Shown here: positions 3,604-27,666 of the stretch, piece by piece
Position numbering within the stretch: position 1 is the stretch's first letter
Layout: each line of letters opens with the position of its first letter
Source: Candidatus Electrothrix sp. GW3-4
GTDB lineage: Bacteria > Desulfobacterota > Desulfobulbia > Desulfobulbales > Desulfobulbaceae
DNA: 32,000 bases
Assembly (NCBI RefSeq): GCF_037902255.1
Contig: NZ_CP147990.1
Coordinates: 3,300,001 to 3,332,000, forward strand
Reading direction: 5' to 3'
Position numbers and translations under genes: made by a program
Notes under the pieces: generated by a model
Told to the model about the DNA's origin: nothing
Database searches by the model: none
What the model saw: the letters and a program-made list of their open reading frames with translations, nothing else

Positions 3604-3641
3604 CGCCTGTTCCTCCGTCCTTGGTTATTCCGCAACCCGTT

Positions 3642-3666
3642 GGGACGAAAAGTCTTTCGCCCCTAC
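3642..3666. repeat. REP-like GC-rich hairpin ending in CCCCTAC (member of the GTAGGGG...CCCCTAC family)
   Basis: The sequence gggacgaaa-agtc-tttcgcccc-tac forms an 8/9-bp stem. It carries the same CCCCTAC end as the elements at 5.2, 19.6 and 22.5 kb. Confidence 0.4.
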
Positions 3667-3730
3667 AATCCCTCATCAATCCCGCACATCACCTACCGAT
3701 CTCTTCCCGTAGGTCCGACCAACCTATGAG

Positions 3731-3960
3731 GGAAGGTCAGCATGAGACACCCTGGTTCCTCTAAGGGAGCAACGAGGGTCCCTCCATCAGAGTAACCCTG
3801 GTCCCTCCATCAGAGTAACCCTGGTCCCTCCATCGGAGCAACCCTGGTCCCTCTGTCGGAGCAACCCTGGTCCCTCTGTCGGAGCAACCAAGGTTCCTCT
3901 ACAAGAGCCACTACGGTTCCTCCATCGGAGCAACCCAGGTTGCTCTGCATAAAGATAGCA
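3731..3960. repeat. Intergenic tandem array, 23-bp unit x ~9-10 (consensus ggtccctccatcggagcaaccct)
   Basis: The anchor ggt(c/t)cctc recurs at 3754, 3777, 3800, 3823, 3846, 3869, 3892, 3915 and 3938, an exact 23-nt phase. Units 2 and 3 are identical and the outer units are degenerate. The array lies between the GT2 stop and the ROCO start. Confidence 0.9.
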
Positions 3961-3988
3961 TGTACCTCTTTGCTGATCACCCTCCTGA

Positions 3989-5188
3989 TCAGGGTCGTTC
4001 CTCCTCCCTGATCTTCACCCGCACCCAGGGCAGAGCCGAAACCTTGTACCGCCGCAGCTCCTCCAGGGAATAAAAGGTGCCGCGCCAATCAACTCCACCC
4101 CGGAGCAGGGTGAGCAACACAGCGCGCCATATAATATAGAGCTTGATATAGGGGGTCACGGGAAACCAGTACAGGCAGCGGAGATCCATGTGAAAGAAGC
4201 GAAGCGACAGGAGCAGGCCGAGCACATTGACAGCTACGATGGCCCCGCAAAGAAGCCGGGGCAGGCCGTCAGCCAGCAGCAAGCCCCAGAGCGGGAGGAT
4301 CTGGGTGGAGAAGACTGCCACAGTCGCGGCAAGGAAGAAGGACAGGCGGTAGTCCAGCAGGGCAAAGGTGTTCTTTTCCAGGCCGCGCACCATCTGGCCC
4401 ACAGTTTGGTACCAATCCACGCTGACAAAGCGACCCCCGAGCAGGCAATCGCAACGGCCGCCGCTGATCTTGGCCATGCGCCCCAGCAGCACGTCATCCA
4501 CCGGACAAAGGCGGATGGGATGATGCCCGCCAAAGCTGTGATAGAAACTCTTCCGTATCATGTTGAAGGCGCCTGCCCCGACATAGAAGCGGGGTCCAGG
4601 CTTGCTGACCAGCCAGGGCCTCAGCAGAGAGAAAAGACTGGCAAGGCTGTCTGCAACCAGCAAGGGCAGCAGTGAGCCAGGCGCGCTCATGCGGAAAAAG
4701 AGACAGAGGTGATCCAGGGTTTGGCTCTGCATACGTGCGGCAGCATGCCTGAGGGTATCCGGGGCAAAGTGGACGTCGGCATCGGTAAAGAGCAGGTATT
4801 CGCCCTTGGCCTGGGCCGCCCCCAGGTGCAGGGCATGATTCTTGCCCAGCCAACCCGCTGGCAGATCTGTGATATGAACCACCCGCAGGCGGGAATGCTC
4901 ACCTGCCATACGGTCAAGAATCTGCGGCGTGGCATCAGTGGAACGATCATCAAGGACGATGATCTCCAGGTTGGGATAATCCAGGGCAAGGACCGAGGTC
5001 AGGGCGGTCTCTATCTCCTGCTCCTCATTGCAGGCCGGGATAATGACGGAGACCTGAGGCAGGGTATCTCCCTCCAAAGGCGGGACATCCTCTAAGCGCA
5101 CCATACAACGATGGGCCAAGTACATATTACGTAACACGGCCAGGGCAATAACAAGAAGACAGAACAGGAACAGGGTGAATAGGGTCAT
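3989..5188 (-). CDS. Membrane-bound family-2 glycosyltransferase
   Basis: 399-aa ORF. N-terminal TM helix, then 'VSVIIPACNEE...LDYPNLEIIVLDDRSTD' (GT2 DxD region), 'PAGWLGKNHAL' and 'FTDADV'. Several C-terminal hydrophobic helices. Confidence 0.8.
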   Translation of the reverse strand: MTLFTLFLFCLLVIALAVLRNMYLAHRCMVRLEDVPPLEGDTLPQVSVIIPACNEEQEIETALTSVLALDYPNLEIIVLDDRSTDATPQILDRMAGEHSRLRVVHITDLPAGWLGKNHALHLGAAQAKGEYLLFTDADVHFAPDTLRHAAARMQSQTLDHLCLFFRMSAPGSLLPLLVADSLASLFSLLRPWLVSKPGPRFYVGAGAFNMIRKSFYHSFGGHHPIRLCPVDDVLLGRMAKISGGRCDCLLGGRFVSVDWYQTVGQMVRGLEKNTFALLDYRLSFFLAATVAVFSTQILPLWGLLLADGLPRLLCGAIVAVNVLGLLLSLRFFHMDLRCLYWFPVTPYIKLYIIWRAVLLTLLRGGVDWRGTFYSLEELRRYKVSALPWVRVKIREEERP

Positions 5189-5208: not shown

Positions 5209-5343
5209 GGTGTTATGTAATCGGTTGGGGCACGGCATGCCGTGCCCGTATAATAACACGTTCAACAGACAACCTGTAGGGGCGCGACCTTTGTATCCGC
5301 CCTTGGATTGTTTCTCCGGGCAGACACGCAGGTCTGCCTCTAC
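5209..5343. repeat. Cluster of three REP-like palindromic elements
   Basis: A 20-bp perfect palindrome gggcacggcatgccgtgccc (5228-5247) is flanked by gtgttat/ataacac. It is followed by gtaggggcgcgacc... and by ccgggcagac-acgcag-gtctgcc-tctac. The cluster sits between the truA stop and the GT2 start. Confidence 0.7.
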
Positions 5344-12205: not shown

Positions 12206-13918
12206 ATGAAAGATAACCTTTCTCATACTATTTCCTATTCCGAGAGCCTGATCGTTCATTTCTGTCGGGCCAAGGAGTTACGATCCGAGGCTGTCCATCT
12301 TATCTCACTTGACCTGAACAGGCGGCAGCTTCGTGACCTTGAATCCCTGCTCAACCGGGCCTTTTATCCCCTGGCAGGCTTCTTGGGGCAGGATGATTAC
12401 CAGGGTGTACTGCAAGAGATGCGCCTGAGCGATGGCTCTGTCTGGCCGATTCCCATCTGCCTTGATGTAAGCGAAGAATTTGCCGCTTCCCTACAAACGG
12501 GACAGCGCATAGGGCTCAATGATCAGGAAGGTTTTCTCCTGGCCATTCTCACCATCAGCGATATCTGGAAGGGAGATAAAAAAGCAGAGGCAAAAGCTCT
12601 CTACGGCACAACAGACCCTGAACAACACCCCGGTGTCCAGGCCCTGTTCGCCGAAGTCAAAGACTGGTATATCGGCGGGAGCGTGGAAGGGGTGACCCTG
12701 CCGATCCATTATGATTTTTGCGATCTCCGCCTGACACCTACAGAAAGCAACCGCCGTTTTATTCAGTACGGATGGCGTCGGGTGGTCGGCTTCCACACAA
12801 AAGAATATCTGCATTGCGCTCACCGGGAAATGGTCTTGGCCGCGGCTCGGGAAACCGGCTGTTCTATCTTCCTGCACCCGGTGGTTGGAATGGACCATCC
12901 GGGCAATATGGAACATTACACCCATGTCCATTGTTACCAGGAATTTGTCCAACATTTCCCCCGCAATATGATCCAACTGGGAGTCATCCCCCTCGCAGAA
13001 CGAAATGCTGGTCCCAGAGAGGCCCTCTGGCATGCCCTGATCCGCAAAAACTACGGTTGCAGCCATTTTATGGTAGCAGCAGATCACGGCGACCCTTTTG
13101 CGGACACCAATACCGATCTTTTCTACCCCCAGGGAGAGGCCCAACAACTTGTTGCCTCGTTGGCCGCAGATACCGGCATTGAAATGGTTCCAGAGCAGGC
13201 AATGGGCTATGCGGAACAGCAGGGAAAATATGTCTATCTTACAGAGGTCCCCAACGAAGAGGTCAAAAATATTACCTCAAAGGAACTCAAACGACGCCTG
13301 GAGCAAGGAGAAAATATACCAGAATGGTTTTCCTTTCCCAATGTCGTTGCCGAGCTGCGCCGCTCTTTCCCGCCACGCTCCAAACAGGGCTTCACTGTTT
13401 TTCTTAGTGGCCTGTCCGGCTCAGGAAAATCAACCATTGCCAAGGTGTTGATGGTTCGTTTTATGGAAATGCGCGACCGTCCAGTAACTCTCTTAGACGG
13501 TGACATTGTCCGCAAGAATCTCTCCTCGGAACTGACCTTTTCCAAAGAGCACCGCAACCTCAATGTCACCCGAATCGGCTTTGTGGCCAGCGAAATCACC
13601 AAGAACGGCGGTATCGCCCTCTGTGCCCCCATTGCCCCCTATGAGGAGTCCCGCCAGGAGAACCGGCGCCTGATCAGTCGCTATGGTGGCTATATTGAGA
13701 TTCATATCGCCACCCCGCTGGAGATCTGTGAGCAACGTGACCGTAAAGGGCTGTACGAGAAGGCCAGGGCCGGTCTGGTTAAAGGAGTAACAGGCATCTC
13801 AGACCCCTACATTCCTCCAACCAACCCGGAAATCGTTATTGATACTTCAAAGATGACCCCAGCAGAAGCCGTGCAGGAGATCTTCCTTTATCTTGAAGAA
13901 CAAGGATATATTCGATAG
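12206..13918 (+). CDS. cysC: Two-domain APS kinase: N-terminal ATP-sulfurylase-like domain (motifs degenerate) plus C-terminal adenylylsulfate kinase
   Basis: The sulfurylase fold is recognisable ('HPVVGMDHPGN', 'AADHGDP'). The APS-kinase P-loop is 'FLSGLSGSGKSTIA'. The start was taken at ATG 12206 (MKDNLSH) rather than the TTG at 12116. Confidence 0.8.
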   Translation: MKDNLSHTISYSESLIVHFCRAKELRSEAVHLISLDLNRRQLRDLESLLNRAFYPLAGFLGQDDYQGVLQEMRLSDGSVWPIPICLDVSEEFAASLQTGQRIGLNDQEGFLLAILTISDIWKGDKKAEAKALYGTTDPEQHPGVQALFAEVKDWYIGGSVEGVTLPIHYDFCDLRLTPTESNRRFIQYGWRRVVGFHTKEYLHCAHREMVLAAARETGCSIFLHPVVGMDHPGNMEHYTHVHCYQEFVQHFPRNMIQLGVIPLAERNAGPREALWHALIRKNYGCSHFMVAADHGDPFADTNTDLFYPQGEAQQLVASLAADTGIEMVPEQAMGYAEQQGKYVYLTEVPNEEVKNITSKELKRRLEQGENIPEWFSFPNVVAELRRSFPPRSKQGFTVFLSGLSGSGKSTIAKVLMVRFMEMRDRPVTLLDGDIVRKNLSSELTFSKEHRNLNVTRIGFVASEITKNGGIALCAPIAPYEESRQENRRLISRYGGYIEIHIATPLEICEQRDRKGLYEKARAGLVKGVTGISDPYIPPTNPEIVIDTSKMTPAEAVQEIFLYLEEQGYIR

Positions 13919-14070
13919 GCCCCTCCCCCTGCTCTTCACTCCTGCTCAATTGGAGGTGCAAGGCAGGGTCCTAAAAAATTGTTCCTGCTCCATCCTCAGG
14001 AGAACCCAGGCCGTTGGAACAGTTCCGTTCCTCCGTAATTCAACCAGAAAAAAACACCAAGGAGTCCCGT

Positions 14071-14382
14071 ATGTGTATCATGAAAACATCCCGTCTTGCC
14101 GGTCTTTGCCTCTTCCTCTTTCTGAGCTTTGCAGGGATTGTTTTTGCTGCCCCGCAAACCAAATGCCCGGTTATGGGAGGGGATATTAACAAAGAGGTCT
14201 ATGTTGATCATAAGGGGCTCCGGGTCTATTTCTGCTGTGAGGCATGTATCGCCAAATTCAAGGAAGATCCGGAAAAATATCTCACCAAGTTAAAAGAGAT
14301 GGGTGAAGAGCCAGAGGTTATTGAGCAAGGCGGGGAAGAAAAGGATAAAAAAGGAAAAGATATGTCCGAGCATAAGGAGTAG
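14071..14382 (+). CDS. Secreted YHS-domain metal-binding protein (copy 1, intact)
   Basis: AAGGAG SD lies 7 nt upstream. Signal peptide 'MCIMKTSRLAGLCLFLFLSFAGIVFA'. YHS-type motif 'CPVMGGDINKEVYVDHKGLRVYFCCEACIAKFKEDPEKY'. It is a paralogue of 25219-25569. Confidence 0.75.
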   Translation: MCIMKTSRLAGLCLFLFLSFAGIVFAAPQTKCPVMGGDINKEVYVDHKGLRVYFCCEACIAKFKEDPEKYLTKLKEMGEEPEVIEQGGEEKDKKGKDMSEHKE

Positions 14383-14391
14383 GAGAAGATC

Positions 14392-14505
14392 ATGCGGGAT
14401 CTGTTTTTTCAAATGATCATGCTGATCTGCTGTGGCCTTTTTCTCTTCCCAGGGCCCTCCTTTGCTGAACGAACAGATCCGCAGCAAGATCCTGCTGATT
14501 ACTGA
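14392..14505 (+). pseudogene. Truncated 5' remnant (37 codons) of a cusB-like periplasmic adaptor gene
   Basis: MRDLFFQMIMLICCGLFLFPGPSFAERTDP... aligns by eye at about 85% nt identity with the first ~100 nt of the adaptor gene at 25579. Homology ends at 14497/14498 and a stop follows at 14503. Confidence 0.75.
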
Positions 14506-14550
14506 GGATGGTCTCAAAGGATTCCCTTTTCCATAAAAGGCAGTACGATA

Positions 14551-15693
14551 ATGAACCGCAAAGTACATAACATTGTCACCGCACCGGGGAAAAAGAAAAT
14601 CCTGGCCATTGACGCCGGGGGCACCCGGGGCGTTATCTCCGTCGAGATTCTGGCCCGCATGGAAGCAATACTCAGAGAGGAACTGGATGCAGGTGATGAC
14701 TTTGTGTTGGCTGATTATTTCGACTTTTTCGCCGGAACAAGTGCCAGTGCCAATATTGCCTGCTTTTTGTCCTTAGGTCTGTCAATCGAGAAAATCCGTG
14801 CCCTGTCAAGAGAGCATGTCCGCCTGTCCTTTGCCAAAAATGCATGGCACTGGCGCTGGCGCTCCAAATTTGATGGCCAATATGTCACTGCTGCGCTGAA
14901 GAAAGAGCTGGGTGAAGACACACTCCTCGGAACTGACGCCCTCAACACCTTACTCATGCTGGTGATGCGGAACGCGCAGACCGAATCGCCATGGCCAGTT
15001 ACGAACAATCCCTATGCGATCTTTAACAAACGGGACGTACCGGGCTGCAATCTTGACCTCCCCTTATGGCAGTTGGTCAGGGCCAGCTCAGCAGCCCCGC
15101 CGCTCTTTTCACCGCAAAAGATTCAGATCGGCGAGCATGAATTTGTCTTTGAAGACGGTGCGATCAGTCCCTACAGCAATCCCGCCTTTATTGCCTTTCT
15201 CCAGGCAACTGTGGACTCCTATAATATCTGCTGGCAAACCAGTAGAGAGGATATACTCCTTGTCTCTGTAGGCAACGGCAGATACTATGGGAAATGCGAC
15301 GCGCTGCATCCGATGGGGAGAACACTGCTCGAAAACGCCAGGACTCTCCCGGTCAGCCTTCTGCGGGCGGCCAACGATGAGCAGGACATGCTGTGCAGGG
15401 TCTTTGGCCACTGCCTGACAGGTCCTCTTCTGGACAGTGAAATCGGTGATCTTATCAACAGCCAGGGCCCTGTTTCACCAAAGCTTTTCACCTATCTCCG
15501 CTATAATTTTGATATAACAGAAGACTTCTTTCAGGGGATAGGAATAACCGATATTGATATGGATATCATCAGATCTGTTGCTGCTGCTGACCATCTGGAG
15601 GAACTTGAAAACATAGGCACGGAGGTAGGAAAACATCTTGTCAGCAAAGAGCATTATCAGGATTTCCTCTTTAAGAATACCAATAATGCGTAG
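14551..15693 (+). CDS. Patatin-like phospholipase
   Basis: 380-aa ORF. Oxyanion motif 'ILAIDAGGTRG', nucleophile-elbow variant 'AGTSAS' (GxSxS) and catalytic Asp motif 'FEDGAISPYSNP'. Confidence 0.85.
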   Translation: MNRKVHNIVTAPGKKKILAIDAGGTRGVISVEILARMEAILREELDAGDDFVLADYFDFFAGTSASANIACFLSLGLSIEKIRALSREHVRLSFAKNAWHWRWRSKFDGQYVTAALKKELGEDTLLGTDALNTLLMLVMRNAQTESPWPVTNNPYAIFNKRDVPGCNLDLPLWQLVRASSAAPPLFSPQKIQIGEHEFVFEDGAISPYSNPAFIAFLQATVDSYNICWQTSREDILLVSVGNGRYYGKCDALHPMGRTLLENARTLPVSLLRAANDEQDMLCRVFGHCLTGPLLDSEIGDLINSQGPVSPKLFTYLRYNFDITEDFFQGIGITDIDMDIIRSVAAADHLEELENIGTEVGKHLVSKEHYQDFLFKNTNNA

Positions 15694-15695
15694 TA

Positions 15696-16322
15696 ATGTG
15701 TAGATGGACTGGAGAGAAAAGAGGCAAAGATCCGTCTCCTTCTGTCATGGTTTTTTCCGGCCATATGATTGACTCGCCGACCAGAAAACCTCCCCGCTTT
15801 CCTCCTGAACTTGAGCATACTGTCACACATTGCATCAATGAACACCTTGTCCTTAATAAAGGAAAAATCGCGTATGCAGCTGCGGCCTCAGGAGGCGATA
15901 TCATCTTCCTTGAGCAGATGCTCTCTTTGCATGGAGAGATCAACATCATCCTTCCTGTTAGCCCTGCTGATTTTAAAGAACAAAGCGTCGCGCCTGCGGG
16001 ACGAACATGGTCACTGCGTTTTGAACGCCTCCTGGCGCATGCTGCAACCGTGCAGATCCTTGGCCCCTATAGCCCGACAAATTTCAAGGAGAGCCTGTGC
16101 AACTGCAACCTGCACCTTTGCAAACTGGCAACTACCCGAGCCCGAAAAAAGAACATGCAGGTTCGTGGCCTGACTGTGCTGGACAGTACCCAGCCTGGCC
16201 ACCTCACCGGAGGAACAGCCTCTATGATCTCTCTCTGGCAGCAGCAAAAAATCCGGTATTCCTGTATTTTTCTTAACAAGCTAAGGAGTAAAAATAACAC
16301 AGGTAATCTTTATGGATCATGA
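15696..16322 (+). CDS. Stand-alone SLOG/LOG-like Rossmannoid protein (putative nucleotide-ligand sensor or processor)
   Basis: 208-aa ORF starting 2 nt after the patatin stop. The pattern 'VMVFSGHMIDSPTRKPPRFP', '...IAYAAAASGGDIIFLEQ' and '...GEINIILPV' matches the strand / Gly-rich loop / strand layout of LOG/SLOG domains. The assignment is by eye only. Confidence 0.5.
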   Translation: MCRWTGEKRGKDPSPSVMVFSGHMIDSPTRKPPRFPPELEHTVTHCINEHLVLNKGKIAYAAAASGGDIIFLEQMLSLHGEINIILPVSPADFKEQSVAPAGRTWSLRFERLLAHAATVQILGPYSPTNFKESLCNCNLHLCKLATTRARKKNMQVRGLTVLDSTQPGHLTGGTASMISLWQQQKIRYSCIFLNKLRSKNNTGNLYGS

Positions 16323-17400
16323 CGTTTTTATCAGTCATTCTTCGCAAAGCAGTACTGCGGCTACAACGATCGTTCATCAGCTTGAACAAAACGATATCCA
16401 TTGCTGGCTAGCACCTCGGGACCTGGACCCTGGCAGTGAATGGGCAGAGGGAATCATTGACGGCATTGAGGGATGCCCTGTATTTCTGCTCCTCCTCTGC
16501 CCCCATGCCAACAGCTCTCCGCAGGTCCTCCGGGAAGTGGAGCGTGCTGTCAGCAAAAAGAAGCCTATTATCCCGGTCATGCTGGGCAACTTCACCCTGT
16601 CAAAATCCCTGGAATACTTCATCAGCAGCCATCATTGGCTGGAGTTTTCTCCGAAGACCGCCCGCAACAACACCAAAATACTTATTGATGTTATCCATAA
16701 AAAGCTCTCAAACCAAGATCGTGTCCCATCTTCATCACCTCAGGAGGCCCCACCAAACACGCACAACAGGCCAGCTTTTTTTGCTCGCAAAAGAGCAGTC
16801 TTGCCCCTTATTGCTCTCCTTTTTCTTCTGCTGAGCTGGCTCTTTTTTCATTTCTTCCGGCATCATTTTGAATCACCTGCCCCGCCCCCTACTGTGCCGA
16901 AGACAACAACACAAGCACTTGATCACTCCACCCAAGCAACAATCTCTGAAGAAAATCTCGGACCGGACGTTGTTTCTGGAGAAGTTTTCGGGATACCGAA
17001 TGGCAACGTTGTGAAAGCACGTATTCACGGCAAAGAAAGAGAGCTTCGCCTGTACGGCACAGATGCCCCCGCGCCTCAACAGGAGTACAATGAAGAAGCG
17101 CGAGCCTTCCTTGAACAACTGATTATTGACAACCGCATTCGTGCCACCTTACTTGGAAAAGACGACCGAGGACACACAGAGGCTATCATCAGTAGCGGAG
17201 AAGCACTCCTCAACAAGGAAATGATCCGGGCAGGATATGCCTGGAAAAATACCAAGCATTGCCAGAAAGAACCTTTATGTTCCGAAATGGGCAAACTTGA
17301 ACAGAAAGCACGGGCTCAACGCCTGGGACTCTGGCAGGGAGACAACCCTATCCCGCCTTGGGAATGGCCCAGCCATCAGAAACTTTTACAAAAACAATGA
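16312..17400 (+). CDS. TIR domain - single transmembrane helix - SNase (thermonuclease)-like domain protein
   Basis: 362-aa ORF overlapping the previous gene by 11 nt. TIR_2-type 'DVFISHS' and 'SSPQVLREVERA' (putative catalytic Glu). TM helix 'AVLPLIALLFLLLSWLFFHFF' at aa ~162-182. C-terminal SNase-like 'RLYGTDAPAP...DDRGHTEAI...EQKARAQRLGLW'. Confidence 0.8.
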   Translation: MDHDVFISHSSQSSTAATTIVHQLEQNDIHCWLAPRDLDPGSEWAEGIIDGIEGCPVFLLLLCPHANSSPQVLREVERAVSKKKPIIPVMLGNFTLSKSLEYFISSHHWLEFSPKTARNNTKILIDVIHKKLSNQDRVPSSSPQEAPPNTHNRPAFFARKRAVLPLIALLFLLLSWLFFHFFRHHFESPAPPPTVPKTTTQALDHSTQATISEENLGPDVVSGEVFGIPNGNVVKARIHGKERELRLYGTDAPAPQQEYNEEARAFLEQLIIDNRIRATLLGKDDRGHTEAIISSGEALLNKEMIRAGYAWKNTKHCQKEPLCSEMGKLEQKARAQRLGLWQGDNPIPPWEWPSHQKLLQKQ

Positions 17401-17500
17401 GAACATCTTTTGAAGACCTGAAAAACAGAGCGACATAGCCTTGGGTGATGCCCACAGAGTAGCTTGCCCAGTTCATGAAAAATACGGGATAACTTTTTAA

Positions 17501-17545
17501 GGTCACGGTACGCCGTGCCCCAACGAAATTACCATTAACACAATA
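17501..17545. repeat. REP-like element related (opposite orientation) to 5209-5260
   Basis: The sequence ggtcacggtacgccgtgccccaacgaaattaccattaacac resembles the reverse complement of ggtgttatgtaatcggttggggcacggc at 5209. Confidence 0.5.
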
Positions 17546-17547
17546 CC

Positions 17548-17880
17548 ATGCACGAACTCTCCGTCACCCAAAGCATCCTTGATATCGTCCTGCAACACGC
17601 CAAAGGGAGAAAGGTCCAGCAGGTCAACCTGGTGATCGGACAGTTCTCATCCATTGTCGATGATTCCGTGCAATTCTATTGGGATATTATCGCCAAGGAG
17701 ACCTTGGCAGCAGAGGCAAAACTCCATTTTGAACGCATCCCTGGCGAGATGACCTGTAATAGCTGCGGCCACGTCTTTCATCCCGGTAGCGAAACCTTCC
17801 TCTGCCCGTCCTGCGAAAGCAACGCTGTACGGGTCAGCGGGGGCCAGGAATTTCAGGTGGACAGCATTGACGTTGAATAA
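17548..17880 (+). CDS. hypA: Hydrogenase nickel-incorporation protein HypA
   Basis: 110-aa ORF. It starts 'MHELS' and carries the zinc site 'CNSCGH...CPSCES'. Confidence 0.9.
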   Translation: MHELSVTQSILDIVLQHAKGRKVQQVNLVIGQFSSIVDDSVQFYWDIIAKETLAAEAKLHFERIPGEMTCNSCGHVFHPGSETFLCPSCESNAVRVSGGQEFQVDSIDVE

Positions 17881-17985: not shown

Positions 17986-18696
17986 ATGTGCGATGGTCAT
18001 AATCACAGTCACCCTACTCATACCCATACAACAACACGGGTTCCTGTGGCAGAACAGATCCTGTCTGCCAATGACAGGATCGCCCAACGTAACCACAGCC
18101 TGCTGCATCAGAAAAAAGTGTACGGTATCAACATCATGGCCTCTCCTGGCGCAGGCAAGACCAGTGTCCTGCTCAAGACCTTGGAGGCTCTCAAGGGACG
18201 GCTGCGGCTCGGCGTCATTGAAGGCGACCCGGCAGGCTCCATTGATACAGAGCGGGCTCTTGCAGCAGGAATGCCTGCGGTCCAGATCAACACCGGCGGG
18301 GAATGCCATCTGGATGCGGTGATGATGGAAGATGCCCTCAGCCAGCTGCCCCTGGATGATCTTGATCTGGTGGTGGTGGAAAACGTGGGTAACCTGATCT
18401 GCCCAGCCAATTTCCGGCTCGGTACCCATCTCAATCTGGTGATTGCCTCCATCCCGGAGGGAGATGATAAGCCCTATAAATATCCGGGCATGTACATGGG
18501 CATGCAGGCCCTGATCATTAACAAAATTGACCTCCTGCCCTATGTCCCCTTTGATATGGAGTATTTCCACCAGGGCGTTGAGGTGCTTAATCCCGGCATT
18601 GCCACCTTTCCGCTTTCCTGCCGGACCGGTGAGGGCCTGGATGCCTGGGCAGACTGGCTGGTTGAACAAGCACGTGCGGAGATCATACCCAGATAA
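17986..18696 (+). CDS. hypB: Hydrogenase maturation GTPase HypB
   Basis: 236-aa ORF. His-rich N-terminus 'MCDGHNHSHPTHTH', P-loop 'SPGAGKTS', 'ENVGNLICP' and 'NKIDL'. Confidence 0.9.
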   Translation: MCDGHNHSHPTHTHTTTRVPVAEQILSANDRIAQRNHSLLHQKKVYGINIMASPGAGKTSVLLKTLEALKGRLRLGVIEGDPAGSIDTERALAAGMPAVQINTGGECHLDAVMMEDALSQLPLDDLDLVVVENVGNLICPANFRLGTHLNLVIASIPEGDDKPYKYPGMYMGMQALIINKIDLLPYVPFDMEYFHQGVEVLNPGIATFPLSCRTGEGLDAWADWLVEQARAEIIPR

Positions 18697-21106
18697 TGTT
18701 CGTCCGGGTACAGGGGCTGGTGCAGGCCGTGGGGTTCCGCCCCTTTGTCTACGGTCTGGCCACAGACTTAGGACTCTGTGGCTGGGTGCGTAACACCTCT
18801 GCTGAGGTGGAGATTCTCCTTCAGGGGCAGAACGGGGCTATTAAAGATTTTCTCGCCCGCCTGAAGCAGGATGCACCCGCACTGGCCCGCATTGATGCCA
18901 TCTCCACCGAACCGGGTTCCTCGGCGAAACGACAGACAGAGCGGTATAGGGAGTTCACGATCCTGCCCTCCGAGGAACAGAAGGGCAAAAGGCAAGGCGT
19001 ACAACCCATAGCCCCGGATGCGGCCCTCTGTTCTGACTGTGAACAAGAGCTGCTGGATCCCGCTGACAGGCGTTATCTCTACCCCTTTATCAGCTGCACC
19101 AACTGCGGCCCACGTTTTACCATCATCCAGGATCTGCCTGTGGACCGCCAACGTACGGTCATGCAGGCCTTTCCCCTCTGTCCGACCTGTCAGACGGAAT
19201 ACGAGAACCCACTGGACCGCCGCTTCCATGCCCAGGCCTCGGCCTGCCCGGTGTGTGGGCCGCACCTAACCCTATATGGGAGGAAAACCGGGCAGGCACG
19301 GGGACCTGCCCCTACAGATCTAGATCTGGATGCCCTGCTCACCGCCCGTCGCCTTTTACACGAAGGCAAGATCATCGCCATAAAGGGGCTAGGTGGCTTT
19401 CATCTGGCCTGTGATGCGGAAAACCCTACTGCGGTCGCCGAGCTTCGTCACCGCAAAAATCGCCCAGATAAGCCCTTTGCCCTCATGGCAGCGGATCTGG
19501 AACAGATCAAGAACATCTGTCAGGTCAGCGATGCAGAGGCGGCACTCCTTCAAGGGTCGGAGAAGCCTATTGTCCTCTTGAAAAAAAATACGTAGGGGCA
19601 GGCCCCTGTGCCTGCCCGGTCTGTAGGGGCACGACGCGCCGTGCCCCTACTATTACCTCCAATGTTGCCCCAAACCTGGACCGGCTAGGCTGCATGCTCC
19701 CCTATACCCCGCTCCACCTGCTCCTGCTCAACCAAACAGACCCCGTTCTTGCCCATGAACCTGCCCCGGCCCTGCTGGTGATGACCAGCGGCAACCGCAG
19801 CGGTGAACCCATTTGCACGGAAAACGAGGAGGCCTTGACCCGGCTGGCTCCCCTGGCTGATGCCCTGCTCCTTCATGATCGGCCCATCCATAGTCGCTGC
19901 GATGACTCGGTGCTGCGGATAGACAGAGAAAACCGCACAGCCCTTTTTCTCCGCAGGAGCCGGGGCTATGCCCCCTATCCGGTCCAGCTCCCTTTTCCAG
20001 TCGAACACATACTTGCGGTGGGAGGTCAGCTCAAGAATACCTTTTGCTTAGCCGAAGGGACGCAGGCCTTTCTCAGTCAGCATATCGGCGATATGGACGA
20101 AGCAGCAACCTCTGCCGCCTTTGCAGCAAGCGTGCAGCAGGTCAGCCAGCTCTTCCGCATCCAACCGCAGTACATCGCCCATGACCTCCACCCGCAATAC
20201 TTCACCAGCCGCTATGCCCAGACAGAATCCCAACTAAACGGCCTACCCTGCCTGGCGGTCCAGCATCACCATGCTCATATCGCAGCCTGCATGGCGGATA
20301 ATGGTCTGGAAGATAGAAAGCTCATTGGCCTTGCCTTTGACGGCACCGGCTTCGGCCCGGACGGCACGATCTGGGGTGGCGAGGTTCTGATTACCTCATA
20401 TACCAAGTTTGAGCGCTTTGCCCATCTCCAATACTTTCCTTTGCCCGGAGGTGAAGCCGCCATCCGTCAACCCTGGCGCATCGCGGTCGGTGCAGCCCAT
20501 GCCCTTGGTATAGCAAGTACAGAGCTTGACGACCTGCCCTTTCTCGATCATATTGAGCCCCAGGCCCTGACCATTATCCGGCAGCAGGTGGACAAACAGA
20601 TCAATTGCCCTCAGACCTCTTCGTTAGGACGACTCTTTGATGCCGCAGCCAGCCTGATCGGCATCCGCAATCAGATCAGTTATGAGGCCCAGGCTGCCAT
20701 TGAGCTGGAGGTGCTGAGCAAACCGTACTTGGACTCAGCTACGCCCTGCACACCTTACCCCTTCTCCCTTGCGCAAACGGAAAGAGTTGTTCCCTTGCAG
20801 GGGCTGTTCCGGGCTATGTTAGAAGATGTCCGCAGGCAGGAACCAGTCGGCCTGATCGGGACCAGACTCCACCAAACCATTGCCCAGCTCGCCATCACCC
20901 TCTGCCTCCAGGCCCAAGCCCTAACCGACCTCCAGGAGGTGGCCCTGTCCGGCGGGGTCTGGCAGAACCAGCTCCTCCTGGACCTGGTCCGCAACGGTTT
21001 AGAAAAACACGGTCTGACCGTCTATTGCCACCAGCAGGTACCCTGCAATGACGGTGGCCTTGCTTTGGGTCAACTTGCTGTGGCCTATCATCAAATAATA
21101 ACCTGA
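18696..21106 (+). pseudogene. hypF: Carbamoyltransferase HypF, interrupted by a 59-bp insertion (two ORFs: 18696-19595 and 19694-21106)
   Basis: All expected parts are present: acylphosphatase-like 'VQAVGFRPFVYGLA', four CxxC zinc motifs, the YrdC-like 'GKIIAIKGLGGFHLACD', and after the break 'MLPYTPLHLLLL...' with the Kae1-like domain. Deleting 19592-19650 restores one frame (…PIVLLKKNTITSNVAPNLDRLGCMLPYTPLH…). Confidence 0.85.
19592..19650. mobile_element. 59-bp MITE/REP-like palindromic insertion inside hypF
   Basis: The element is GTAGGGGCAggcccctgtgcctgcccggtctgtaggggcacgacgcgccgTGCCCCTAC. It has 9-bp terminal inverted repeats and two internal hairpins (gggcaggc/gcctgccc and gtaggggcacg/cgtgcccctac). 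'tac' occurs both just before the element and at its end. Its length is 2 mod 3, and it introduces a TAG at 19593. Confidence 0.75.
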
Positions 21107-23820: not shown

Positions 23821-25164
23821 ATGAAGCGATATATCTGCGCCTGCCTCTGCTGTCTGCCAGTGCTCATACTGACAAGTTCCTCTGTTCTCGCCGCTGAAAA
23901 AGACAAGAATACCCTGGCCGCATACCTTGAACAGGCCCTTGTTGGCAATGATAGCCTGCTGGCGGCCCAGGCCGAACTGCGTGCTGCCTCGGCAAGGGTA
24001 CGCCAGGCTGGCGTCCTGCCGGACCCGAAACTGGAGGTGCAGTATTATCTGCAACCCATTGAGACCAGAACCGGACCGCAGCAGGCAGCCATAGGCATCG
24101 GACAGGGCCTGCCCTGGTTTGGCAAACTGGCCCTGATGCGCAAGATGGGAGACCATGACGAGGCCCTTGCCGCAGCCAAGGTCGCGGCAGCGGAGCTGGA
24201 GGTGGTCCGGCAGGTGAAAGAGACCTATATCGAATACTGTTTTCTCGGTCGTTCGCAGCAGATTCTGAGCGACAACCTTGAACTGCTCCATTATCTGGAA
24301 GGAGTGGCCCGTGATCGCTATACCGGCGGCAAGGCCACCTACTTTGACGTGCTCAAGGTCCAGGTGGAGCTGGCCCAGACAGAGGATAAGGTCCGTACCC
24401 TGGCGGATCAGACAATGCCGCTCCGTGTCCGCCTCAACAACCTCCTGGGCACAGGGCCGGAACGGAGCCGTCCGCTGCCGGAACAGCTGCCAAGGGTTGT
24501 CTTGAAAAAGAAGGCAGAGACAATTTATCCCCTTGCCTTGAAAAAGGCCCCGCTGCTGCTGGCGGCGCAGGAGCGCATTGCCAAGGCGCGTACTGGCAGA
24601 GAACTAGCGGACAAGGCGTTCTTCCCGGACTTCCAGATCTCGTTAAAAACCATTTTTACCGGGTCAGCAGAATACGGCGATCCGCCGGATAGCGGCTCTG
24701 ATCCGGTCATTGCCGGGGTGAGTATGAACATCCCCCTGTTCCGGGAGCGTCGCCATGCCAGGGTGGCTGAGCAGGAAACAGCTGTGAGCGGGGCGCAGGC
24801 CATGGAGGCGGAGCAACAGCGGGGGATACAAAACAAGATTGAGCAGGGCCTGTACGCCTACCGGGATGCAGAGCGCAGAGTGGCCCTGTATCGCGATGAG
24901 CTGCTCCCTAAAGTCAGGCAGCAGCTGGAGGTGGCCGTCAGCGGCTTCCAGAGCGGTAAAAATTCCATCCTGGAGATTATTGATGCAGAAAAGAGCCTAC
25001 TGACCTTTGACTTGGCTAAGAGTCGTGCCTTGGCCGACAGGGCCCTTGCTGTGGCAGGGCTAGAGGCCCAGGCCGGAGCAGTGCTGGCAAGCTGGACCCA
25101 GGACGAGCAGAAGAAGACAAGAGAAGAGAAAAAGAGCAAAACTGAAAGCCGTTCGGACAGTTGA
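23821..25164 (+). CDS. TolC/CusC-family outer-membrane efflux protein
   Basis: 447-aa ORF. It has a signal peptide and two OEP-type coiled-coil/beta repeats ('LEQALVGNDSLLAAQAELRAA', 'YFDVLKVQVELAQTEDK'). It lies upstream of the adaptor and RND pump genes. Confidence 0.8.
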   Translation: MKRYICACLCCLPVLILTSSSVLAAEKDKNTLAAYLEQALVGNDSLLAAQAELRAASARVRQAGVLPDPKLEVQYYLQPIETRTGPQQAAIGIGQGLPWFGKLALMRKMGDHDEALAAAKVAAAELEVVRQVKETYIEYCFLGRSQQILSDNLELLHYLEGVARDRYTGGKATYFDVLKVQVELAQTEDKVRTLADQTMPLRVRLNNLLGTGPERSRPLPEQLPRVVLKKKAETIYPLALKKAPLLLAAQERIAKARTGRELADKAFFPDFQISLKTIFTGSAEYGDPPDSGSDPVIAGVSMNIPLFRERRHARVAEQETAVSGAQAMEAEQQRGIQNKIEQGLYAYRDAERRVALYRDELLPKVRQQLEVAVSGFQSGKNSILEIIDAEKSLLTFDLAKSRALADRALAVAGLEAQAGAVLASWTQDEQKKTREEKKSKTESRSDS

Positions 25165-25218
25165 GGAATGTCCCCGGCTGTCATTAGCCACACCAACATA
25201 AAGAAAAGGAGTACAATT

Positions 25219-25569
25219 ATGCGTATCATCAGAACATTCGGCCTGGTAGGTTTATGTCTTTTCGTGCTGCTGACCTTTGCCGGAACGGCCCTGGCAGAAG
25301 CCGCAGACCACCTGCCCGGTCATGGGCGGCAAGATCAATAAAGAGATCTATGTGGATTATCAGGGACAGCGGATCTATTTCTGCTGTGAGGCCTGTCCGC
25401 CGGAATTCAAGAAAGATCCAGAGAAATACCTGGCCAAGTTGAAAGATCTGGGCCAGGAGCCGGAGAAGATTGAGCAAGGCGAGAAAGAGAAGAAAAAGAA
25501 AGAGAGATGCCTGAGCATAATATGGACATGTCCGAGCATCACATGGATACGCCAGAGCATAAGGAATAG
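25219..25569 (+). pseudogene. Secreted YHS-domain metal-binding protein (copy 2) with Met/His-rich tail; two opposite-sign frameshifts as written
   Basis: Three segments in two frames. (1) The signal peptide MRIIRTFGLVGLCLFVLLTFAGTALA is in frame 1 and stops at 25339. (2) The YHS core 'KPQTTCPVMGGKINKEIYVDYQGQRIYFCCEACPPEFKKDPEKYLAKL' is in frame 2. (3) The tail 'MPEHNMDMSEHHMDTPEHKE*' is back in frame 1. AAAGGAG SD lies before ATG 25219. Confidence 0.75.
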
Positions 25570-25578
25570 GAGGATATC

Positions 25579-27666
25579 ATGCGGGATCTGTTTTTTCACC
25601 TGATCATCCTGATCTGTTGTGGGCTTCCTCTCTTCTCAGGAAACGCCTTTGCTGAACAAGCAGATCCTGCTGGGCATCAGCACGAGCAGGCCCCGGCAAC
25701 GGTCTGGACCTGCTCCATGCATCCCCAGATCCAGCTCCCGGAACCCGGTCAATGTCCTATCTGTTTTATGGATCTGATCGAGGTGGAAAAACAGAACAAC
25801 GAAGAGCGCCTCAGTCTGCGCCAGATCTCTCTGGACAGTCAGGCGAGAAAGCTGGCAGAGATCGAAGTACAGCCGGTCATCCGAGGGAACAAGGAAACCG
25901 ATGCGAGCATACAGATCTTCGGACGGATCGATTACGATGAGACCAGAGTCAGCACCATCACCTCCTGGGTGGACGGTCGCATTGACCGGCTCCTGGTTGA
26001 TTATACCGGTGCGACAGTGCAACGTGGACAGGCTGTGGCCCAGGTATACAGTCCAGAACTGTTCACGGCCCAGGCCGAGCTGATCCAGGCCCTGCAGGAG
26101 GTCAAGCGGGTTGGAAAATCAGAGAACAGCTTAGTCAAAAAAATGGCTGGCCGCACCCTGGCCGCGGCACGGGAAAAGCTGCGCCTGCTGGGGATCGGCA
26201 AAAAACAGCTGCAGGCCATGGAAGGGTTGGAACAACCTGCCCAGCATGTCACCCTCACTGCTCCGCAGGCCGGGGTGGTGATTGAGAAGCATGTCAACGA
26301 GGGCGTGTACGTCAAGACCGGCAATCCAGTCTACACCCTGGCCGACTTGTCCCAGGTCTGGGTGATCCTTGAGGTCTATGAATCAGACCTCCAAGCGGTC
26401 AGCATGGGGCAGAAGGTCGGCTTTACCGTGGAGGCCTATCCCGGTACCGAGTTTCAGGGCAAGGTGGTGTACATCGATCCGCTGGTGGATGAAAAAACCG
26501 GACCGTCCGGGTGCGTCTCAATGCTGATAACAGCAAAGGAAAACTAAAACCGGGGATGTTTATCCGGGCAGAGCTGGTCGTCCCGGCAGACGGACCAGGA
26601 CAGGCCCCGCTGCTGATCCCGGCCTCAGCCCCCTTGCTCACCGGCAAACGGGCCTTGGTCTATGTCCAGCTCCCGGATAAACCAGGGACCTATATCGGAC
26701 GCGAGGTGGTGCTGGGCTCACGGCGGGGAGACTACTACGAGGTAAAGAATGGGCTCAAGGAGGAGGAATTGGTCGTTATGCGAGGGAATTTCAAGATCGA
26801 CTCCGCCATCCAGCTCCAGGCCCGTCCCTCGATGATGAATCCCTTTACAGGGAGTGGTGACCAACAGAACAAGGCATTTCCCGAGCTCTTTTCCTCCCGA
26901 CTTGATCTCTTGAACCAAAGTTTTGTTGAACTCTCCCGGGAGACCCACAAACAGGACGGACAGGATGGAGGCCGATATCGCTCTGCCTTACAGGATTTCA
27001 AGCGGGCACTCTCTGCCATAACCGAAGAGGGGCTTAAAGAAGAGGAGAAGTTAAACTGGCAGGAGTTTGCCATGCTCCTGACAAATGACCTTATCCTCCT
27101 CCAGGAAGCAGAGGACGGCCAAGAAGCCCGACGAATCTACATCGAGTTTGCCGAGCATTTTCATCAGGTCCGTGAACGTTTTGCCATCCGGGACATTCCG
27201 GCAACCCATGCCGCCTCCCCGGAGCTCCAGGCCAAGGTAGGGGATCTGCTCAAAGGCTACCTGATCCTCCAACAAAACCTTGCGACAGATAATGAGCAGG
27301 TGGCCCTGGAGTCGGCAGCGGCCCTCCCCCTTAACAGCTTCCTTAATCACTGCCCTTCGCCAAACAGCAGCAAAGGAAGCAGGTGAGCTGGCAAAACGTC
27401 TGGAAGAGGGCATGCAAGGAGTATCAGCAGCAGGAAACCTGATCGAGCTTCGCACGGCCTTTTATCCCTATAGTCAGGCCGTGGTCGAAACAGTGGAGAC
27501 CTATGGTAGTAACGACCATACCTCCTGGTTTGTCCACTTCTGTCCCATGGCCTTTGATAACACTGGTGCCACCTGGTTGGCGCCCTCAGAGGAGATCAAT
27601 AATCCCTATTTCGGGACCATGATGCTCCGCTGTGGCGAGGTACGGAAGCAGCTGACGCAGGAGTGA
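25579..27666 (+). pseudogene. cusB: CusB-like RND periplasmic adaptor with N-terminal heavy-metal-binding motif and C-terminal DUF3347-like domain; two frameshifts as written
   Basis: 'WTCSMHPQIQLPEPGQCPICFMDL' is the metal-binding motif. The adaptor core continues across 26497 only after a -1 correction (…VDEKT|RTVRVRLNADNSKGKLKPGMF…). It continues across the C5 run at 27326-27330 only after a +1 correction. The C-terminus reads 'FCPMAFDNTGATWL...INNPYFGTMMLRCGE'. Confidence 0.8.

Follow-up and report, generated by a model that had tools for sequence, protein, structure and literature searches.

A candidate TIR-based conflict cassette of cable bacteria with a predicted membrane-anchored sensor carrying a degenerate staphylococcal nuclease fold

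Why should a TIR domain be joined, through a membrane helix, to a nuclease fold that has lost most of its catalytic residues? The question is raised by a gene in a stretch of 32,000 nucleotides (nt) from the genome of Candidatus Electrothrix sp. GW3-4 (Desulfobulbaceae; contig NZ_CP147990.1, positions 3,300,001 to 3,332,000 of the forward strand), the whole of which is called the window here. In our reading, to which we give a probability of about one half (0.5), this gene encodes the sensor that generates the signal in a TIR-based, Thoeris-like conflict cassette of three genes (serving immunity or suicide), the other members of which are a YpsA-like SLOG-fold protein and a patatin-like phospholipase (Table 1).

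The original prediction for this locus, made from the sequence without database searches, had proposed a TIR domain, a single transmembrane (TM) helix and a domain resembling staphylococcal nuclease (SNase), and the combination of TIR and SNase-like domains is borne out by Pfam, by an AlphaFold2 (AF2) model and by Foldseek. TIR_2 (PF13676) matches residues 5-115 with an E-value of 5.2e-21 (75.8 bits against a cut-off of 28), and SNase (PF00565) matches residues 245-342 with an E-value of 2.8e-14 (53.9 bits against 21). The AF2 model, for which an alignment of 83 relatives served as input, has a mean pLDDT (per-residue confidence) of 87, with values above 90 over residues 1-135 and 218-362 and disordered stretches at residues 149-157 and 196-216. 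The TIR domain (pLDDT 92-98 over residues 1-100) is modelled with the flavodoxin-like fold by which TIR domains are recognised. For the C-terminal domain, the top Foldseek match in the PDB is staphylococcal nuclease (E 6e-10, TM-score for the target 0.84, root mean square deviation 2.2 Å, 127 columns), and the modelled domain is an oligonucleotide/oligosaccharide-binding (OB) fold beta-barrel with three helices that superposes on this enzyme.

Table 1. Coordinates of the cassette genes, of the segments of the TIR protein and of a downstream palindrome, counted from the first letter of the window (aa, amino acids)
Feature	Positions	Strand	Basis or remark
TIR-TM-pseudo-SNase protein	16312..17400	+	362 aa, ATG start
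Cytoplasmic TIR domain (predicted side), aa 1-135	16312..16716	+	Pfam TIR_2, pLDDT >90
Single TM helix, aa 162-185, R/K-rich N-side flank	16795..16866	+	Kyte-Doolittle scan, AF2 helix
Pro/Thr-rich disordered stalk, aa 186-217	16867..16962	+	pLDDT <50 over aa 196-216
Extracytoplasmic (predicted) SNase-fold pseudo-nuclease domain, aa 218-352	16963..17367	+	Pfam, Foldseek, alignments
YpsA-like SLOG-fold protein, predicted nucleotide-ligand receptor	15696..16322	+	208 aa; AF2 and Foldseek
Patatin-like phospholipase, predicted effector	14551..15693	+	380 aa; Pfam PF01734, E 2.3e-16
G+C-rich palindrome AGGTCACGGTACGCCGTGCCCC	17500..17521	.	100 nt after the stop codon of the TIR gene

Residue equivalences in the SNase-like domain were established with phmmer against the SNase chains of the PDB and with a MAFFT alignment that included SNase A and 19 close canonical bacterial homologs; every position formerly assigned by eye was reproduced. 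From the catalytic set of SNase (D19, D21, R35, D40, E43 and R87), only R35 and D40 are kept, as R246 and D251. The two aspartates D19 and D21 are replaced by N230 and N232, E43 by A254 and R87 by H288; beside D40, T41 is replaced by A252 and P42 is kept as P253. Three further replacements, absent from the original prediction, are those of K84 by D285, Y85 by R286 and Y115 by H316. Among the 19 nearest canonical homologs, whose N-termini bear signal-type segments, all these positions are conserved in 15 to 18 sequences; 18 of these 19 keep all six catalytic residues (D-D-R-D-E-R), and the secreted relatives read DGDT, DAPE and YGRT at the corresponding motifs. Formal alignment and superposition on SNase, which had been named as checks, thus agree that the scaffold is retained and that most of the catalytic residues are lost, the Asp/Glu/Arg set not being intact. 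Its fold and its profile match place the domain in the SNase family, but its catalytic residues do not.

Compared with staphylococcal nuclease and the secreted thermonucleases (PF00565; YncB and EcnA types), the domain has in common the OB-fold, a Pfam score above the gathering threshold, R35, D40 and P42, the hydrophobic core and the C-terminal LGLW and PIPPWEW motifs. By contrast, D19N, D21N, E43A, R87H (R87E in second copies), K84D, Y85R and Y115H are fixed in its clade, and instead of following a signal peptide the domain is fused behind a TM helix to a TIR domain, with a tandem duplicate in some members. The clade is small. The same architecture is found in Ca. Electrothrix scaldis (P0001, 92% identity), in a fragment (P0002, 56%) and on metagenome contigs L003 and L004/L005. 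On L004 (4925-6454) the protein has 509 residues and ends in two tandem degenerate domains, and on L003 (2-1415) the same gene is split, its second domain being called as a protein of 144 residues (P0121) with an 11-nt overlap, which is probably a frameshift or an artefact of gene calling or assembly. P0121 was also considered as an independent secreted form of the domain and rejected, since on L004 the same domain is the second tandem unit of the 509-residue protein.

Altogether, seven copies of the domain are available (one each from the window, P0001 and P0002 and two each from L003 and L004). PNGN and DAPA are present in all of them, and the position of R87 reads G-H in first copies and G-E in second copies. 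An HMMER scan of 1.84 billion cluster representatives detected 10,607 SNase relatives, and among all representatives scored the signature N-N-R-D-A-(H/E) occurs only in P0001 and P0121. Among the best 150 proteins, which were examined further (~176 domains), the canonical D-D-R-D-E-R is found in 102 domains and roughly a quarter deviate from it, often in tandem-repeat proteins. In retaining the scaffold while losing active-site residues, the domain resembles Tudor-SN/SND1 and such degenerate bacterial SNase repeats, but among the other degenerate domains listed there is no fusion to TIR, and the N-N-R-D-A-(H/E) signature is confined to the clade of the window protein.

Could the domain nevertheless be a hydrolase, a nuclease or phosphodiesterase with a His-based site or another metal, for which the TIR part would be regulatory? 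R246 and D251 are kept, and H288, H316 and R286 line the former active site in first-domain copies; moreover, cleavage of RNA has been reported for eukaryotic Tudor-SN, although the canonical residues are absent from its SN domains. We nonetheless hold this to be very improbable, because in 7/7 copies Ala stands in place of the general base E43 and Asn in place of each acidic Ca2+ ligand, single substitutions at D21, E43 or R87 cut the kcat of SNase by orders of magnitude, and the His set is not conserved, H288 being replaced by Glu and H316 by Ile in the second tandem copies. The same lack of conservation led us to reject a metal-sensing ectodomain, which the new His residues and the Ni and Cu genes nearby had suggested; furthermore, the flanking genes differ between genomes.

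Loss of the catalytic residues is not accompanied by decay. Over the seven copies, at 53-66% identity, 62 columns are invariant, including N230, N232, R246 and D251. The ratio of nonsynonymous to synonymous substitution rates (dN/dS) of the domain is 0.15 against E. scaldis (locus L001) and 0.07 against L004, as low as that of the TIR domain (0.16 and 0.04), whereas the linker and TM helix have 0.52 and 0.39. The domain is therefore kept by selection in its non-catalytic form and, to judge from these substitution patterns, is functional, under purifying selection as strong as that on TIR. What is being kept might be a stable, ligand-free periplasmic scaffold serving to anchor or oligomerise the protein, for instance on peptidoglycan or periplasmic fibres, with activation coming from the cytoplasm. 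The loss of the nucleotide-binding residues would agree with such a role, and the tandem duplication on L004 is compatible with a spacer or a means of avidity; however, the 62 invariant columns, among them polar positions of the former pocket, exceed the need of a spacer, and typical sensor ectodomains interchange in relatives of the protein, so that we regard a mere scaffold as improbable. Another proposal of the original prediction, that of a nucleic-acid or nucleotide cue, is not supported. K84, Y85 and Y115 hold the nucleotide in the complex of SNase with pdTp (deoxythymidine 3',5'-bisphosphate). All three are replaced in addition to R87, and binding of DNA, RNA or pdTp is therefore not inferable from homology.

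On which side of the membrane would this domain lie? The N-terminus of the protein is hydrophilic, which indicates that there is no signal peptide, and the sole strongly hydrophobic stretch outside the TIR core, residues 160-184 (Kyte-Doolittle maximum 2.4), coincides with an AF2 helix at residues 163-185. The hydropathy scan and the model thus agree with the claim of one TM helix, with ARKR on its N side, and no signal peptide. The proposed orientation, with the N-terminus inside and the C-terminus outside, is backed by four lines of reasoning. First, four positive charges precede the helix (R153, R159, K160 and R161) and one follows it (R183), which predicts this orientation by the positive-inside rule. 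Second, export is hardly to be expected of a folded TIR domain of 160 residues that has no signal peptide. Third, the nearest SNase relatives are exported, 119 of the closest 149 having an N-terminal hydrophobic segment. Fourth, C317 and C323 align with the Cys pair of exported relatives, present in 107 of 176 SNase domains. This conserved pair would fit a disulfide in an oxidising compartment and assigns the domain, on alignment evidence, to the exported, disulfide-bearing thermonuclease subfamily of which the pair is typical. The Pro/Thr-rich stalk that follows the helix in the model is consistent with the same picture.

The predicted cytoplasmic part has the hallmarks of an enzyme. Glu75 lies in a REVERAV motif that is near-invariant among the 83 relatives, and in an hhalign profile comparison it aligned with the Glu of the 'HKEIV' motif of SARM1, which we take to be the catalytic one; BLASTP of the TIR domain against a SARM1 TIR sequence gave no usable alignment. 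A Glu between betaC and betaD is critical for the NADase activity of TIR domains (PMC7075850). Having kept a Glu of the catalytic type, the domain of the window protein would belong to the enzymatic class of TIR domains.

Moreover, the TIR domain belongs to a wider TIR-TM module. It is 50-67% identical to TIR domains of proteins that have the TM segment at the same position and other C-terminal domains, and the ectodomains found on these related modules include DUF4384, PDZ, Sel1/TPR, FGE-sulfatase and CsgG-like domains. A TM-like segment follows the TIR domain in 71 of its 120 closest relatives, with at least 80 residues beyond the segment in 61, which makes the family large enough to deserve systematic study. 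The interchangeable ectodomains, together with the SLOG/patatin operon, support the earlier idea of a transmembrane sensor, though not its nucleic-acid or nucleotide cue. Such a layout recalls Toll-like receptors (TLRs), for instance the DNA-sensing TLR9, in which a recognition domain outside the cytoplasm is likewise joined by a single TM helix to a cytoplasmic TIR domain, and signalling through TIR oligomerisation would be expected in both. The likeness is one of analogy, not of homology of the whole protein, since the window protein has its TIR domain at the N-terminus (type II orientation), an SNase fold and not leucine-rich repeats (LRRs) as its ectodomain and an apparently enzymatic TIR domain of the bacterial type.

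It is possible, if doubtful, that the protein represents a large class of 'inside-out Toll-like receptors', in which interchangeable periplasmic domains drive the oligomerisation of cytoplasmic, enzymatic TIR domains. Described bacterial TIR immune sensors (the ThsB proteins of Thoeris) are soluble and are said to sense infection inside the cell, and the searchable literature describes no TIR-TM-SNase architecture and no bacterial membrane-anchored TIR receptor. If the class is real, bacteria would gain envelope-level innate immune surveillance from such receptors, and extracytoplasmic recognition would be coupled to TIR signalling in bacteria as it is in animals with TLRs. The binding module would be a re-purposed nuclease fossil here, and DUF4384, PDZ, Sel1 or FGE-sulfatase domains elsewhere; the former would illustrate clearly, in a natural protein, how a nuclease fold can be turned into a sensor without catalysis. 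In cable bacteria, the signal of such a receptor would run through a split SLOG-patatin effector, and single cells of a filament with a common periplasm could be sacrificed.

Two side observations concern the relatives of this module. The closest proteins with the TIR-TM-DUF4384 arrangement (L016, 4459-5949; L017, 3244-4752) are each preceded by a protein of ~500 residues with an N-terminal RyR domain (PF02026, E 1.4e-30), and these pairs may constitute a second, different two-gene TIR-TM system. SLOG and patatin as general companions of TIR-TM relatives were considered and discarded, because the DUF4384 versions adjoin RyR-domain or TPR genes instead.

Within the window, the TIR gene is the last of a compact operon. 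The patatin and SLOG genes are separated by 2 nt, and the TIR gene begins before the SLOG gene stops, with an overlap of 11 nt; the TIR gene is translationally coupled to both partners. Promoter and terminator consensus scans of positions 13800-17700 returned no more sites than shuffled sequence. The patatin scores 61 bits against a cut-off of 27.7 (PF01734), its best PADLOC match is 'Effector phospholipase', a lipase effector of the type found in CBASS (cyclic oligonucleotide-based anti-phage signalling system; E 7e-28), and it matches NCBIfam CBASS_lipase with 68.7 bits (E 5e-19), under the cut-off of 200. The GGxRG oxyanion motif (G23-G24-x-R26-G27), the nucleophile Ser64 in GTSAS and Asp202-Gly-Ala are invariant in the alignment of homologs. 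The Ser-Asp dyad, as judged from these motifs, is intact, as in patatin-like phospholipases. The nucleophile motif itself (residues 62-66) is GTSAS and not the usual GxSxG, a form kept in the cable-bacterial copies, while the homolog on contig L006 has GTSTG. A further peculiarity is that the patatin is 86% identical to its counterpart on L004, far above the SLOG protein (53%) and the TIR protein (61%).

The middle gene encodes a protein with zero matches in Pfam, PADLOC or NCBIfam and for which only 9 homologs were found. Its AF2 model (pLDDT 83, predicted TM-score 0.82) retrieves YpsA (2nx2) as the first Foldseek match in the PDB (E 4.8e-7, TM-scores 0.61/0.70), followed by DprA, ShosA, the MoCo carrier protein and LOG. 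Its conserved motifs are GHMID-P-R-PRFP, AAxGxDIxFxE and GGTxxM, within which AAxGxD and GGT are invariant. On the evidence of the model, a Rossmannoid fold with Gly-rich loops, the protein is a member of the SLOG superfamily.

How might three such proteins work together? We propose that the pseudo-nuclease lies in the periplasm, where it would sense a ligand or damage instead of working as an enzyme. Its engagement would cluster the receptors, and the cytoplasmic TIR domains would oligomerise and convert NAD+ into a messenger derived from ADP-ribose (ADPR). Like the SLOG domain of ThsA in type I Thoeris, the SLOG protein would bind this messenger and would then switch on the patatin; the lipase would degrade the membrane, and the cell would be killed or isolated. 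In Thoeris of type I, the TIR protein produces 3' cyclic ADPR (3'cADPR), which is received by the SLOG domain of ThsA, and 29 putative types of Thoeris have been proposed, with predicted phospholipases among their effectors (bioRxiv 10.64898/2025.12.03.692087). The window cassette shares with Thoeris a TIR gene with a catalytic-type Glu that adjoins a SLOG-fold gene and an enzyme of the cell-killing type. It thus has the three parts by which a Thoeris operon is defined, namely, TIR, a gene for a ligand-binding domain and a toxic effector, and by analogy the order of events, from TIR product through SLOG to effector, could be the same. If so, the cassette would add a split SLOG and patatin effector to the receivers of TIR signals.

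The differences are equally clear. Type I Thoeris has a SIR2-SLOG ThsA, whereas in the window SLOG and effector are separate and the effector is a patatin, not SIR2; ThsB is soluble, whereas the TIR protein of the window is predicted to be membrane-anchored with a periplasmic domain. Unlike Thoeris, the cassette matches no Thoeris profile at threshold and has no obvious defence-island context. The cassette is Thoeris-type in its logic, yet it falls outside every described type by sequence models. Two other kinds of systems come near it. TIR/Tpr assemblies include genes for YpsA-type SLOG proteins and for patatins, and YpsA-Tpr and patatin-Tpr assemblies are listed as such (bioRxiv 10.1101/2023.05.26.542521). 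Distant homologs of the SLOG protein sit in loci of this BcTir/Tpr, Tpr-centred kind (L006 and L007), but the window cassette has no TPR-S gene, its TIR domain is of another, TM-anchored clade and the position of the sensor is taken by the periplasmic pseudo-nuclease. With CBASS effectors of the CapV type, the patatin has in common its fold, its best PADLOC and NCBIfam matches and the Ser-Asp dyad. However, there is no CD-NTase cyclase among the neighbours, the CBASS_lipase score remains well below its cut-off, GTSAS stands in place of GTSTG and the partner is a SLOG protein.

Several points weigh against the reading as a Thoeris-like cassette. ThsB_TIR (PF08937) reaches only E 0.039 (14.8 bits against a cut-off of 21.2) and ThcB4 18.6 bits against 220; no PADLOC Thoeris model matches any of the three proteins, and the SLOG protein has no PADLOC match. 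SLOG and patatin are made as two polypeptides, and a coupling between them has to be assumed. The TIR sensors of known Thoeris systems reside in the cytoplasm, and the single-pass topology proposed here, with the N-terminal TIR domain inside and the C-terminal domain outside, is a prediction. Homology of the ectodomain to nucleases no longer predicts that it binds nucleic acid. Only five or so carriers are known: a search of GTDB species genomes with the full protein gave TIR-only matches (L008-L014) and no pseudo-SNase domain, and searches with the alignment of this domain gave 285 pattern matches in JGI metagenome contigs and 103 in IMG/VR viral contigs, none of which was confirmed. Moreover, no obvious defence island surrounds the cassette, whose neighbours are sat/cysC, a YHS gene, hypothetical genes and metal-efflux genes. 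All three proteins are small and separable, so that the hypothesis is directly testable.

Conservation of the cassette bears on how its parts are divided between signal and effect. The order patatin-SLOG-TIR is kept in E. scaldis (L001) and on L004/L005, at 53-86% protein identity and with differing flanking genes. On L006, a homologous patatin (44% identity) overlaps a SLOG homolog, and upstream of them are two soluble TIR_2 genes, a ParA-like ATPase and a TPR-S / MAP3K_TRAF_bd protein; on L007, a TPR-S gene and a gene whose TIR_2 match is weak and below threshold precede a SLOG homolog. Recurring with soluble TIR genes, SLOG and patatin therefore behave as a module that pairs with different TIR proteins. 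One may object that the TIR domain is itself the effector, which depletes NAD+ upon engagement of the ectodomain, and that SLOG and patatin act in parallel to it or assist it, for instance as an enzyme that is LOG-like or degrades the signal and as a lipase that works independently. Indeed, many bacterial TIR domains deplete NAD+ rather than signal (bioRxiv 10.64898/2025.12.03.692087), the SLOG superfamily includes enzymes such as LOG, and the DUF4384 relatives without SLOG or patatin neighbours imply that a TIR-TM module can work without them. We consider this alternative unlikely, because the three genes are translationally coupled with their order conserved at the level of divergence given above, and because SLOG with patatin beside unrelated soluble TIR genes (L006), or SLOG beside the weak TIR_2 match (L007), is the pattern expected of a signal receiver.

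Besides the question of mechanism, there is that of purpose. Ca. Electrothrix is the sole carrier whose taxonomy is known, the others being unclassified metagenome contigs, and the cassette might not be antiviral at all: it could be a device for envelope integrity or for filament-level programmed cell death or signalling in the multicellular cable bacteria, which would sense either damage, through a periplasmic cue, or a molecule of the organism's own in the shared periplasm, and would sacrifice or seal off the damaged cell. This taxonomic restriction, the ectodomain predicted to face the periplasm and the lack of an obvious defence-island context would suit such a role, and an enrichment of TIR-type conflict systems has been described for multicellular prokaryotes (PMC7159879). 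However, TIR, SLOG and patatin are established or predicted anti-phage parts elsewhere, and the differing flanks in the two Electrothrix genomes fit the mobility typical of defence genes. A role of this kind seems unlikely, more so than a TIR effector, and we retain the Thoeris-like conflict cassette as the preferred reading.

The surroundings of the cassette show further peculiarities. In E. scaldis, OEP, YHS and CusB-like genes lie together upstream of it (L001, 2160-6178), whereas in the window only the YHS gene is upstream (14014-14382), and the OEP and CusB-like genes are downstream of a cluster of hypothetical genes (23821-26547); a point of rearrangement adjoins the cassette. An OLD-family AAA_15/TOPRIM gene (Gabija/OLD-like), ~7 kb downstream of the cassette in E. 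scaldis (L001, 16133-17089), is the one gene of a recognisable defence type near any copy. Near the start of the window, an LRR-Roc-COR protein (ROCO-type GTPase) of 787 residues is encoded at 1240-3603 (- strand), and the G+C content is lower, 0.45-0.47, around 2500-4000. Such proteins are typical of conflict or signalling systems in multicellular bacteria.

The palindrome downstream of the TIR gene (Table 1) is one of three in the window that follow the pattern GGGGCACG-N4-GCCGTGCCCC with up to 2-3 mismatches (5227-5248, 17500-17521 and 19626-19647), against 0.03 expected by chance. Two of the three are intergenic, one of them being the copy just downstream of the TIR gene, possibly a mark of the operon's 3' end or an element similar to repetitive extragenic palindromes (REP-like). 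Another copy is associated with a split gene: hypF (18696-21106) is divided into two open reading frames in different frames (18696-19595 and 19694-21106), between which its Sua5/YrdC domain is shared out, and the gap of ~100 nt holds the perfect G+C-rich palindrome GGGGCACGACGCGCCGTGCCCC at 19626-19647. The split looks like a small insertion resembling REP elements or miniature inverted-repeat transposable elements, a pseudogene or an assembly problem.

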